A stretch of DNA of 32,470 bases from a virus (taxonomy: Duplodnaviria; Heunggongvirae; Uroviricota; Caudoviricetes): the IMG/VR virus record IMGVR_UViG_3300048904_000202, positions 132,007-164,476 of that record, one strand, 5' to 3'. Both the position numbers and the translations under genes were made by a program. This document shows, piece after piece, positions 9,116 through 17,421 of this stretch. Each line of letters begins with the position of its first letter. Within the stretch, counting starts at the first letter, position 1. The notes beneath the pieces were generated by a model. The model did no database searches. It was not told where the DNA came from and saw nothing but the letters and a program-made list of their open reading frames with translations.

Positions 9116-9393
9116 GCGTCAAGACCTGCATCATCGCCGAGCATGACATTGCCTGCCAGCAGCTTCGCCGAGAACTCGCGATCGGACCGGCCGGTGCATC
9201 ACTCGTCCACGCCAACCCTTACTTCCACGTCCTGACGCCGGGCGAGATGCCGTGTGCCGTCATGTACGATGAGGTGATAATCTTCGAGAGCGTGGACGAG
9301 AAGATTGCAACCTGCCCGCGCCACGAGGACTGGTTCGAGACTTGCATCCGCACCCGGATGACGCGAGACGCCCAGATCGTGATCGTCAAATGA
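9112..9393 (+). CDS. Hypothetical protein, 93 aa
   Basis: GTGA overlap; resembles the C-terminal half of the preceding ORF in layout. Confidence 0.65.
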   Translation: MSVKTCIIAEHDIACQQLRRELAIGPAGASLVHANPYFHVLTPGEMPCAVMYDEVIIFESVDEKIATCPRHEDWFETCIRTRMTRDAQIVIVK

Positions 9394-9605
9394 ACGATCC
9401 TTGCCGCATCGTGGAGATCAAGGAAGTCTCGGCTAAGTGCTGTCCGTTCTGCGGCCGACAAGACATCCGCACGTTGCGGACCAAGGAAAACATGTGGGCT
9501 ACGATCTGCTACCCGTTCGAGGACGGTTGCGGTGCCCGCACCGATTACCATTTCAGTGCTTGGTCATCACGCGCCGCGTGGGACCGCCGGGTGGACCCTA
9601 CTTGA
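9390..9605 (+). CDS. Lar-family (restriction alleviation-like) zinc-binding protein, 71 aa
   Basis: CPFCG … C … GCGA … AAWDRR pattern typical of the Lar family; ATGA overlap. Confidence 0.65.
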   Translation: MNDPCRIVEIKEVSAKCCPFCGRQDIRTLRTKENMWATICYPFEDGCGARTDYHFSAWSSRAAWDRRVDPT

Positions 9606-9639
9606 CATATTCCAGAACCTGTGTTAGTTTAACTGACAC
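9602..9639 (+). promoter_or_regulatory. Sigma70-type promoter with overlapping palindrome
   Basis: TTGACA-N17-TAGTTT; GTGTTAGTT-T-AACTGACAC at 9621-9639. Confidence 0.7.
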
Positions 9640-9960
9640 TGGTATCTGACCGAGATGGGGCTGGCGCGTAGTCGGCCTTCCATCTTGTGGACGAGACGAC
9701 AGGGTTGATGGATGGCAGCGGCTTCTTTGGTCGGTTGCCGCATCGTCCGTAGAGGAGTCGGTTCGGGCGTTCGTCCGCACGGCTCGGTCTCCAAACCTCC
9801 TTGCGTTCATGAACGGCATCACGGCCTGATCCGGTATTCGGACTGCCTGACCTTCGAGTGAGGTCACGAAGGGCGGTCCACCCCAAGGGAGCCTAGGGCA
9901 CAGGCGAAAGCCCCTGTCCGGTCGAAGCTCCCGCCCCATTCTTTCTGTCCAGCGCCCGTC
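9640..9960 (+). ncRNA. Candidate structured non-coding RNA or very long structured portal leader
   Basis: At least 7 hand-identified helices, GAAA tetraloop, no credible + strand ORF, own promoter. Confidence 0.45.
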
Positions 9961-10082
9961 ATTGCGCCTCCTTCCCGGCTTATGCCCTTGTGCCGGGGGA
10001 CACGAACAAGGGCCGTCTCCCTAACCTGCCCGGCTGCGCGTCTCCATCCGCGCGCCGGGCACTTTTTACGGACATCCTTCCC

Positions 10083-11894
10083 TTGGCCTCCGCCCCGCCC
10101 GAAAAGATCACCAAGAAGCAGGCCAAGTCATATCAGGCGCGGCAGGCGGCCTACGCGGCCAAGCGTTCCAAGCAACAGCTTGCCGATCTCATGCCGGCGT
10201 TCGTCAACTGGGACTATACCAACTGGCGCGACATCTGGCGCTCGATCCGACACGCGATGATCGGTGAAGTCGCCATCAAGCAGCAGGGCAAAATGTACCT
10301 GCCGCAGCCCGAGGGGATGGATGACGGCCAGTACGCCGCCTATCTCGATCGCGCCGTCTTCTACAACATGGTCTATCGCACGGTCACCGGACTCACCGGT
10401 GCCATCTTCCGTCGCGATCCGCGCCTCCTCAAAGCCAGCACGAACCTGACGGCTCTCACCAAGCGCGTTTCGAAGGACGGCCTCTCCCTCAATATCTTCG
10501 CCAAGGTCGTGGCGCAGGAAATGCTCTCGGTCGGCCGCTTCGGCATTCTGGCCGACAAGGCGGCATCCGACAGCCTCACGGCCAAGCCGTACCTCGCGGG
10601 ATATACCTGCGAGAACATCTTGGACTGGACGTGGACCGAGATCGACGGCCGCAACGAGTACGATTACATCTTGCTGCGCGAGTTCATCATGGACCGCCGC
10701 ATGTGGATCGCCGAGGGGAAGCAACTCGTCTCGAACCCGAGCTACGGTCAGCTTTTCTGCGCGTACCGCTGCCTTCGCCTGATCTACAACCCGGAGTTCG
10801 ATCGCTGGGAGTACATTCAGGAATATTACACCCGTGGCAACGAAGACGCGGACCTGACGGAAGACCCGGAGATCACGCAGCCGCTGATCTTTGGCGTGCC
10901 GATGAATCGCATCCCGTTCAGCTTCTTCAACGCGACGACCAACCTTGGCGACATCGAGAAGCCGCCGGTCCTCGACATCCTGTCGCTGAACCTTTCCCAC
11001 TACAAGACATATGCTCAGCTTGAGCATGGTCGCTTCTACACCGCGAACCCGGTCTACTGGGTGTCGGGGTCACAGGAAGACGACGAGTATCTGATCGGTC
11101 CATCAGTCGTCTGGGAAATTGGAACCAACGAAAAAGCAGGCCTCATCGAGTTTAATGGGCAGGGGCTCAAGTCGCTCGAAATCGCGCTCTCCACCAAGGA
11201 GACACAGGTCGCATCACTCGGCGGCCGGCTCATCGGCGACGCGGCAACTGCCGGTCAGTCCGACAATCAGATCAAGCTCAAGGATCGCAACGAACAGTCG
11301 CTGCTCCTCAACGTCACCACCGTCATCAACGAGAATTTCACGTTCCTGCTCGGCATCTTGGCTCAGTGGATGAACGAGAATACGGACGGTCTGGAGTTTC
11401 GGGTCAATCAGGACTTTCTCCTCGATGGCGCAGCAGCCCGCGAGTTCCGCGCCGTGGCGCAGATGTACGCGGACGGCATGGTACCGATCGAAATCTTCTA
11501 CGAGTATTTCCTCAAGAACGAGGTGATCCCCGATTACGTCGATCTGGAAACCTTCAAGAATCTCCTCGAAGACGCCAATCAGTTCCCGAACGATCCGGAC
11601 TTCGAAGCTCGCGTCGAAGGGTACAAGGACGCCGCTTCGAAGGTTTCCTCGGAGACCCAGATCAAGGTGGCCGAGATCACTGCCGGCGCGGCGACCGATG
11701 TGGCGGAAGCCAATAACGACACCAAGGTCGAGTTGCAGGAATCGCAGCAGCAGCACGACGCGCAGCAGAACGCCCAGCAGCGCAAGACGGACGAGAAGGT
11801 CGCCAAGAATCAGCCTCGGATTCCTCCGGTACCGACGCAAGGGCGACAGGCTCTCCAGCGCGATGCCACCAAGCCGGCCGGCGGGACCAAATAA
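10083..11894 (+). CDS. Portal protein (DUF4055-like); start uncertain (GTG 9990, TTG 10083 or ATG 10191)
   Basis: YLPQPEGMDDGQYAAYLDRAVFYN…RTVTGLTGAIFRRDP portal-type N-terminus; first gene of the head module. Confidence 0.85.
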   Translation: MASAPPEKITKKQAKSYQARQAAYAAKRSKQQLADLMPAFVNWDYTNWRDIWRSIRHAMIGEVAIKQQGKMYLPQPEGMDDGQYAAYLDRAVFYNMVYRTVTGLTGAIFRRDPRLLKASTNLTALTKRVSKDGLSLNIFAKVVAQEMLSVGRFGILADKAASDSLTAKPYLAGYTCENILDWTWTEIDGRNEYDYILLREFIMDRRMWIAEGKQLVSNPSYGQLFCAYRCLRLIYNPEFDRWEYIQEYYTRGNEDADLTEDPEITQPLIFGVPMNRIPFSFFNATTNLGDIEKPPVLDILSLNLSHYKTYAQLEHGRFYTANPVYWVSGSQEDDEYLIGPSVVWEIGTNEKAGLIEFNGQGLKSLEIALSTKETQVASLGGRLIGDAATAGQSDNQIKLKDRNEQSLLLNVTTVINENFTFLLGILAQWMNENTDGLEFRVNQDFLLDGAAAREFRAVAQMYADGMVPIEIFYEYFLKNEVIPDYVDLETFKNLLEDANQFPNDPDFEARVEGYKDAASKVSSETQIKVAEITAGAATDVAEANNDTKVELQESQQQHDAQQNAQQRKTDEKVAKNQPRIPPVPTQGRQALQRDATKPAGGTK

Positions 11895-12090: not shown

Positions 12091-12136
12091 TTAAGGTTAA
12101 TTTTCCCTTGACTTCCACGAGATGGTCCAGTATGAT
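12091..12136 (+). promoter_or_regulatory. Strong sigma70-type promoter with TTAA-N7-TTGAC overlapping the -35
   Basis: TTGACT 12108, N17, TATGAT 12131; TTAAGGTTAA upstream; TCCACGAG (reverse CTCGTGGA) in the spacer. Confidence 0.85.
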
Positions 12137-12142
12137 TTACGC

Positions 12143-12378
12143 CATCTTTGATCTGATAGAGGTTTAGCCGGGGTCCGGCTTATCTACCCTGTCGATCCAT
12201 CCCAAAATCAGATGTTGGCCCACCTTGTAGGGCAACGACGCTCCGGGGGAGCGGTCTAACAGAATCCCCCACCCGAGATTTCGGACACCTCCGACGTGTC
12301 CAGAATGAAATCCTCCGGAGGGTCCGGAGGTAACGCATGTCTGCGTTTTCTCCAGTCCCTCGGTGAGGAACTTCAATA
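12143..12378 (+). ncRNA. Multi-hairpin 5' leader or ncRNA upstream of the scaffold gene
   Basis: At least 8 short perfect hairpins in ~235 nt, four with GG(G/T) triloops; the last one covers the SD. Confidence 0.45.
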
Positions 12379-17392: not shown

Positions 17393-17421
17393 TTGACAAT
17401 CTACCCACTTTCGTTTACCAT
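17393..17421 (+). promoter_or_regulatory. Sigma70-type promoter for the tail tube gene
   Basis: TTGACA-N17-TACCAT; second TTGACA at 17348. Confidence 0.6.

Follow-up and report, generated by a model that had tools for sequence, protein, structure and literature searches.

We have analyzed a stretch of 32,470 nucleotides (the window) that makes up the final 32.5 kb of a 164,476-bp viral contig, rated as complete by CheckV. The genes of interest follow each other in the order PhoH, small ORFs, a gap, portal (phrog_145, DUF4055), scaffold (phrog_206) and major capsid (phrog_212). The same order is found in Sphingobium phage Lacusarx, Erythrobacter phage vB_EliS-L02 and Citromicrobium phage RXM, large phiCbK-related siphoviruses that carry their terminase genes at the opposite genome end (PMC5648845). 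The gene before the gap (9342–9605, + strand) codes for an 87-aa Zn-ribbon protein (CxxC...C) with weak Lar-like similarity (PF14354, E 0.006; phrog_599, E 2e-4), and it is not the same gene from relative to relative. The portal gene (10083–11894, + strand; phrog_145, E 8e-103) starts with a TTG at 10083 preceded by a weak ribosome-binding site, the start having been set by aligning the portal N-terminus with the ATG, GTG or TTG starts of the relatives. Between the Lar-like gene and the portal gene a gap of about 478 nt (9606 to 10082) is non-coding. Its ORFs, on both strands and including one of 113 aa on the minus strand (9598–9939), gave no translated similarity in the relatives and no Pfam or PHROG match.

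An initial annotation, made from the sequence alone, had placed in this gap, directly before the portal gene, a structured non-coding RNA of about 300 nt that has a promoter of its own and lacks a credible + strand ORF. The position holds in every relative, always on the same strand as the portal gene, and the lack of coding capacity is borne out by the unconserved ORFs. The annotation had also failed to match the RNA to tRNA, tmRNA, RNase P, SRP or intron cores; ARAGORN found neither tRNA nor tmRNA, and a search of the whole window against Rfam 15 gave no match at gathering score. The best Rfam matches in 9400–10200 were SorX (12.7 bits) and a lncRNA model (11.8 bits), both sub-threshold and by E-value noise, and among ten relatives again none was above threshold, only sub-threshold sRNA-like matches appearing.

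The promoter, TTGACA-N17-TAGTTT, is of the sigma-70 type and lies on the + strand at 9602–9630 (-35 box 9602–9607, -10 box 9625–9630). As had been proposed, it belongs to the element: a TTGAC(A/T)-N17/18 promoter occupies the equivalent place in all 19 distinct full-length leaders (the window included) even though the gene in front of it varies, and the one of the window is among only three perfect TTGACA-N16-18-TAnnnT sites of the 164-kb genome. In the relatives the promoter comes straight after the preceding stop codon; in the window the TGA of the Lar-like gene falls within the -35 hexamer itself. An A/T-rich GTTATTTT-type element abuts the -35 box in most relatives (L001–L003, L145, L165, L166) and in Lacusarx precedes both the portal and the scaffold promoters (L002 4430–4450); the portal promoter of the window is free of it. 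Another strong promoter, at genome position 128925, has a probable small ORF downstream and no comparable leader.

Transcription is predicted to start near 9636–9638. At the other end of the gap we found an intrinsic terminator (10027–10067, + strand) with a GC-rich stem of 13 bp interrupted by one bulge, the loop UCUCCAUC and UUUUU at 10063–10067. The hairpin folds with -27.1 kcal/mol (z -5.1), and only 15 nt separate the end of its U-run from the portal start codon. The predicted RNA would therefore measure about 430 nt (about 9637–10067), so that the size of 300 nt was an underestimate in which CU motifs, a hairpin or pseudoknot and the terminator had been overlooked. A simple promoter/terminator scan likewise overlooked both signals, because the -10 box is non-consensus and the terminator stem is bulged. 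In the relatives a GC-rich hairpin lies about 10–30 nt upstream of the portal start. A strong hairpin followed by four or five U, with stem sequences unrelated to each other, is found in the 15 full-length type A/B leaders and in a truncated one (L014), always 10–25 nt ahead of the start codon, while in the four RXM-like leaders the hairpin is present and the U-run absent. A run of 4–5 U is short, and termination efficiency is not predictable from it.

The relatives were collected by a portal alignment search that gave 64 IMG/VR loci, 22 metagenome loci and 5 genome loci. The leader was present in every relative with a portal identity of at least 56%, with the exception of L014, where the 3' module only is kept; in portal relatives at 23–45% identity a homologous leader was not found. 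From the -35 box to the portal start the leaders measure 235–545 nt. A leader RNA profile had matches upstream of portal genes and nowhere else, with a single one in the genome of the window. The same restriction was seen with R1, a covariance model of a two-hairpin domain described below, built from a seed of 12 sequences: it recovered also Lacusarx, L147 and L144, all outside the seed, and matched only upstream of portal genes, once per genome. R1 gave no match in the RXM-like leaders or at the distant portal loci, nor in 150 other sphingomonad genomes, the sole match there being on a phage-like contig of Sphingobium sp. MK2. Scanning IMG/VR for the DNA pattern GGTGG-N12-17-CTGTCTCCTCC returned 68 stretches and no new member; by nhmmer, the true members among them were already in the portal search set and the others were chance matches.

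Three subtypes can be told apart, and the 5' two-thirds of the leader are very different among them. Two-hairpin domain, pseudoknot and terminator unite the L017-like with the Lacusarx-like leaders. In the four RXM-like ones, CUGGUGACC/GGUCACCAG closes a 5' domain of another kind, behind which come two hairpins whose loops show CUCCUCC. Common to all subtypes are the promoter, CU-rich CUCC motifs and a hairpin adjoining the start codon. In L014 (2365–2494; IMGVR_UViG_3300020045_013255) only the pseudoknot, UGUCUCCUCC and the terminator precede the portal gene; there is no recognizable promoter, and apparent opposite-strand ORFs stand in place of the promoter and the 5' domains. Either a deletion occurred naturally in this leader, or the assembly is chimeric.

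Two observations had been named in advance as counting against a structured RNA, folding no more stable than that of shuffled sequence and a lack of covariation, and they came out differently. The stretch 9640–9960 is not unusually stable (MFE z-score -0.71 on the + strand and -0.11 on the - strand), shuffled sequence doing equally well, and the whole predicted RNA (9637–10067) reaches only -1.65. Single modules score better, with -3.4 for the 5' hairpin, -2.2 for the two-hairpin domain and -3.0 for the 3' module, and covariation, the stronger test, was clearly positive. Near-continuous pairing had been claimed; about half of the helices proposed hold, and several are wrong.

Starting from the 5' end, AGATGG/CCATCT (9653–85) was confirmed as a stable 5'-proximal hairpin (9651–9686, + strand, -22.8 kcal/mol). 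A helix of unrelated sequence folds near the predicted start site in most relatives, not in all. Downstream is a GAGAC motif (9693–9697, + strand; the GAGACCAC block of the relatives) with a possible long-range partner, GUCUC, at 10015–10019. RNAalifold paired these columns in 10 of 11 sequences, both sides being invariant and hence giving no covariation. A hairpin at 9718–9741 (+ strand) with the conserved hexaloop UUGGUC (9727–9732) is better supported: in alignment A8, 77% of the cells were paired against at most 44% in slid controls, with compensatory changes at five of six pairs. Of the pairing formerly drawn at 9689–9748 the inner hairpin thus survives in another register, and the outer helix GGACGA/TCGTCC found no support (z -0.69). 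What follows is variable among the relatives and includes both the proposed helix GAGTCG/CGGCTC (9755–85) and a first CU-rich tract, UCUCCAAACCUCCUU (9788–9802, + strand).

The best supported part is the two-hairpin domain (9839–9937, + strand), which consists of hairpin 1 (9840–9879) and hairpin 2, with an outer helix 9887–9892/9927–9932, an asymmetric internal loop and then an inner hairpin with a GAAA tip. The domain scores 42 bits in the window under model R1, from which the outer helix of the window's hairpin 2 is offset by one position, and all 15 type A/B leaders, folded singly, give the same two-hairpin shape. In alignment A7 there were compensatory changes at 22 of 27 pairs and 92.5% of the cells paired against at most 51% in slid controls, figures somewhat inflated since A7 was fitted to R1. 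For hairpin 2 with its internal loop (15 sequences), 93.5% of the cells pair, sliding the partner brings this down to 54% or less, and compensatory changes are seen at 9 of 12 pairs. The internal loop is near-invariant in the relatives (UGGUA opposite GCUCGAA) and reads CUA opposite GGUCGAA in the window. A GGU:GCU pairing inside it, predicted by MFE, was rejected as it showed no compensatory change at all. Here the initial annotation had been right about TGACCT/AGGTCA (9848–66), which is helix 2 of R1 and has covariation support, and about ACAGG...CCTGT with its C-GAAA-G tip, the window's extended form of the conserved inner hairpin. Its GGCA/TGCC (9815–47) and GGGCGG/CCGCCC (9871–9936) compete with the pairs supported by homology, GGA 9840–42/TCC 9877–79, GCCT 9845–48/GGGC 9871–74 and GGGAGC 9887–92/GCTCCC 9927–32. 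Owing to its many G:U pairs the fold is specific to the + strand, which argues for an RNA and not a DNA element.

The 3' part begins with a CU-rich, anti-Shine-Dalgarno-like motif, CCUCCUUCCC (9967–9976, + strand), with matching motifs at the same place in L164 and Lacusarx. Next comes a hairpin or, probably, an H-type pseudoknot (9974–10013, + strand), formed by S1 (9974–9979/9992–9997) and S2 (9984–9990/10007–10013). Read by eye, S2 covaries among the relatives (GGCU/AGCC, GGUU/AACC, GGCC/GGCC, AGGCU/AGCCU, and GCCCUUG/CAAGGGC in the window) and S1 switches from CGG/CCG to AGG/CCU. The second CU-rich motif, CGUCUCCCU (10014–10022, + strand), is the counterpart of the relatives' UGUCUCCUCC block, which is kept in 17 of 20 distinct leaders (truncated L014 counted) and weakened in the window, Lacusarx and L147. 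The 3' hairpins are flanked by CU-rich CUCC motifs of anti-Shine-Dalgarno-like character.

That the structure is due to chance in a GC-rich spacer, or that the gap hides a protein gene, would agree with the low z-score of 9640–9960 and with the presence of the 113-aa minus-strand ORF. Against it, the leader blocks are conserved across phages whose portal proteins share only 56–68% identity, the covariation exceeds every control and the gap ORFs are not conserved. We consider this explanation refuted by the comparative data and give it next to no credence. From its promoter, non-coding sequence, covarying structure, terminator and exclusive linkage to the portal gene we take the element as a new family of structured leader RNAs, placed at the head of the portal transcription unit in Lacusarx-like (phiCbK-related) sphingomonad phages. 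We have found no description of such an element in the literature, and neither Rfam nor the papers on Lacusarx, vB_EliS-L02 and RXM contain it; the Lacusarx paper predicted promoters and terminators for each module and described no leader RNA.

Regarding its role, the reading that fits the data best is the regulatory portal leader that had been offered as one option in the initial annotation, given the terminator that ends 15 nt before the start codon. More precisely, we favor, with middling confidence, a leader that acts in cis as an attenuator, holding down portal expression and setting free a discrete RNA. Host RNA polymerase would start at the strong promoter at 9602–9630 and produce the non-coding RNA of some 430 nt, which would fold into the 5' hairpin, the UUGGUC-hexaloop hairpin, the two-hairpin domain and the hairpin or pseudoknot between CU-rich tracts before the polymerase reaches the intrinsic terminator. 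No further promoter fits between the terminator and the start codon, so that portal mRNA would come by read-through only. With the U-run so close to the start codon, portal transcription must pass the terminator, which implies attenuation in the type A/B leaders. The attenuator, the TTG start and the weak ribosome-binding site together would keep the low-copy portal protein scarce, and the scaffold and capsid genes would be served by their own unattenuated promoter at 12108. This layout fits a design with portal protein low and scaffold and capsid protein high. The folded domains would probably set or modulate the read-through and stabilize the RNA, the terminated 430-nt product presumably building up as a discrete species.

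Some observations refine this picture. That L014 keeps only the 3' module beside the portal gene argues that this module serves portal in cis. In the four RXM-like relatives, where no U-run is present, the element must be a 5' UTR. Inspection of alignments and folds showed no conserved antiterminator pairing competing with the terminator stem, so that a regulated read-through is no more than a possibility. In addition, a strong promoter running into a terminator would be wasteful if low portal expression were all that mattered, which hints that the RNA has a job of its own. The modest MFE z-scores, the short U-run and the great divergence of the 5' two-thirds among the subtypes also weigh against the attenuator reading.

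A close known parallel is the late leader of lambda (PR'-tR', 6S RNA), where likewise a promoter heads the virion genes, a short non-coding transcript ends at an intrinsic terminator and the structural genes behind it depend on read-through. The arrangement expected of a lambda-type Q unit, a short leader between a promoter and an intrinsic terminator ahead of the virion genes, is the one found here. The portal leader RNA differs from 6S in being more than twice as long and in having conserved covarying domains, and only the portal unit stands behind this terminator, scaffold and capsid having a separate promoter. The Q models PF06530 and PF03589 had no match in the 164-kb genome, although a too-diverged Q protein could escape them.

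That no Q-like antiterminator protein is detectable would also suit a different mechanism, in which the two-hairpin domain acts in cis like the put RNAs of HK022 and modifies the polymerase to read through the leader terminator and later ones. In HK022 the order at PL-putL-tL is promoter, structured RNA, terminator and genes, and putL and putR are, like our domain, two-hairpin RNAs between promoter and terminator at the head of an operon. The domain and the U-run terminator also go together, both being present in the 15 full-length type A/B leaders and missing from the four RXM-like ones, but this co-occurrence amounts to only two or three evolutionary events, and L014 has the terminator without the domain. 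There is neither sequence nor Rfam model similarity to put RNAs, nor evidence of polymerase modification. Long-range antitermination would moreover be unnecessary, since the structural module has promoters of its own (12108, 17393). We find put-like antitermination improbable.

The scaffold gene bears on another proposal. It is served by a separate TTGACT-N17-TATGAT promoter at 12108, behind which lies a conserved leader of about 240 nt that contains no terminator (window 12108–12378). Long blocks of this leader are near-identical in Lacusarx, among them a CCUCCGGAGGGUCCGGAGG hairpin and CCUCGGUGAGGAA over the ribosome-binding site, and from its sequence it looks like a second conserved structured leader among the head genes. 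More promoters (e.g., the one at 17393) and terminators subdivide the structural module. The initial annotation had suggested a link with head assembly after the model of the phi29 packaging RNA, bound at the portal during DNA packaging. Portal-gene adjacency and the fact that both are structured phage non-coding RNAs are the sole points in its favor; the pRNA of phi29, a terminase-less phage with protein-primed replication, binds the connector, but its gene is not known to lie beside the connector gene. With the scaffold gene having an analogous promoter and leader, the adjacency reflects the transcription of head genes and not an RNA binding site. We have found no pRNA match in Rfam, no homology to the phi29 RNA and nothing that ties the leader RNA to the capsid. 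Packaging here is terminase-based, the relatives having classical TerS and TerL at the other genome end (PMC5648845). We regard a packaging RNA as very improbable.

The internal loop of hairpin 2 might be the binding site of a ligand or of a phage protein (the portal protein itself, for instance), and binding would switch termination or translation. The high conservation of this loop (UGGUA opposite GCUCGAA) within a covarying helix and the position ahead of a terminator suit such a riboswitch or protein-binding leader. So does the ability of CAAGGG (10007–10012) in the window to pair either with 9985–9990 or with the start-codon region CCCUUG at 10080–10085, around the portal TTG. However, no known aptamer matched, the 5' domains differ among the three subtypes with the RXM-like type lacking the internal loop, and the start-codon pairing is not kept in most relatives. 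A switch of this kind therefore appears quite doubtful as an explanation of the family. The 5' strand of the window's hairpin, GCCCUUG (9984–9990), duplicates the portal start region, and the alternative pairing of CAAGGG could work as a translational switch in this particular phage. As a family feature, pairing of the pseudoknot 3' strand with the start codon was discarded: we have seen it only in the window, L164 and the L011/L015/L017 group, and it is absent in L001, L010, L014, L016, L022 and Lacusarx.

A more serious competitor of the attenuator is a riboregulator acting in trans. Here an Hfq-type regulator, either the terminated RNA itself or a fragment of about 80–110 nt processed from its 3' part, would be the main product, which is conceivable although we lean against it. 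Its exposed CU-rich tracts would pair with ribosome-binding sites of host or phage mRNAs, a part of the proposal that we find equally uncertain. The RNA would be a mimic of host alpha-R8 (MmgR/SisA-D), SorX or cuckoo-type sRNAs, with portal read-through as a by-product or second output, and this too we take as a minority possibility. The strong promoter followed by a strong terminator does define a discrete RNA, and the 3' module, a hairpin, a CUCC-rich linker and a terminator with U-tail, has the architecture of alpha-R8 RNAs (MmgR in Sinorhizobium, SisA-D in Caulobacter; suhB, RF00519) and of SorX (RF02784). In the window the alpha-R8 order is reproduced by the hairpin at 9984–10013, CGUCUCCCU at 10014–10022 and the terminator at 10027–10067. 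The alpha-R8 family is Hfq-associated and acts through a 10-mer with anti-Shine-Dalgarno signature (PMC12559287). True copies with the same layout exist in the hosts: four genes of the alpha-R8/MmgR family in the assembly of Sphingobium sp. MK2 (L169, L171, L173, L175) and one in an Erythrobacter MAG (L170) score above the Rfam cut-off, all with the core GCCUUUCAGGC-AUCCUCUCC-N-terminator.

The scores of the leaders themselves are all below gathering. For SorX (46.6 bits) there are full-length sub-threshold matches in L164 (36.8) and L147 (32.5), the window staying at its 12.7 bits; for suhB/MmgR (41 bits) the best are L164 (27.8) and L010 (27.7), and the only match in the window's genome is one of 15 bits at an unrelated terminator. 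The suhB model also matched sub-threshold in 13 out of 14 control genomes and, within the phages themselves, at unrelated terminators, so the resemblance may be generic. A related phage has a full-length sub-threshold suhB/MmgR-like match of 28 bits far from its portal leader (G153:C1:95739-95824, in the record of L019), perhaps a further sRNA-like terminator unit of the early region. Besides, alpha-R8 is a free-standing gene of about 75–80 nt with its own promoter, whereas here the module closes a leader of about 430 nt and has no promoter directly upstream of it, and the motif, UGUCUCCUCC, differs from the AUCCUCUCCUAAAAC of the host copies.

Cuckoo RNAs (CcsR, ar14/NfeR1) have 2–4 adjacent hairpins, each with CCUCCUCCC in its loop (PMC4615179). 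The RXM-like relatives, with their adjacent pair of hairpins and CUCCUCC loops, are nearer to them than the window, where the CU tracts lie mostly between hairpins, the full CCUCCUCCC is not reached, only the terminator loop UCUCCAUC bears a short CU motif and Rfam gives no match. These same RXM-like members lack the U-run, which speaks against a trans-acting product, and the constant fusion to the portal gene is left unexplained by it. When the two CU tracts were scanned for duplexes with the phage genome, no specific target came out, only GC-rich noise. We have treated the sRNA resemblance as one of working principle and not as family membership.

The element sits at the entry to the virion-assembly genes in a whole clade of large phages that infect environmentally important sphingomonads, and for three of its members both phage and host are in culture. 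To our knowledge, covarying structured RNAs of several hundred bases are rare in bacteria and phages, and new biology has come out of most of them. Should the 3' module be a mimic of host anti-Shine-Dalgarno sRNAs, this would be a lytic phage borrowing the riboregulatory grammar of its host; if there is no mimicry, the leader would be a clean new model for setting the ratio of portal to scaffold to capsid at the RNA level. We would go further only tentatively and suspect that either of two bolder proposals might apply. The clade may have fused a new RNA domain, large and structured, to a host-like anti-Shine-Dalgarno sRNA module (alpha-R8/SorX/cuckoo type) before the portal gene, which would meter portal and at the same time supply an abundant Hfq-dependent riboregulator or mimic that, late in the infection, reprograms translation in the host, or the two-hairpin domain may be a new fold of factor-independent, put-like antiterminator.

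Two of the relatives come from bacterial assemblies. An RXM-type leader and portal gene (L165) are found inside a 3.7-Mb Erythrobacter MAG chromosome record (OZ245896.1, 263.5–268.2 kb). This may reflect a prophage, or else the joining of a phage contig to the chromosome during assembly. L164 is a Lacusarx-like phage genome present as contig NODE_7 (143.9 kb, coverage 128x) in the assembly of the isolate Sphingobium sp. MK2, and it provides a direct host link and a possible carrier-state culture.
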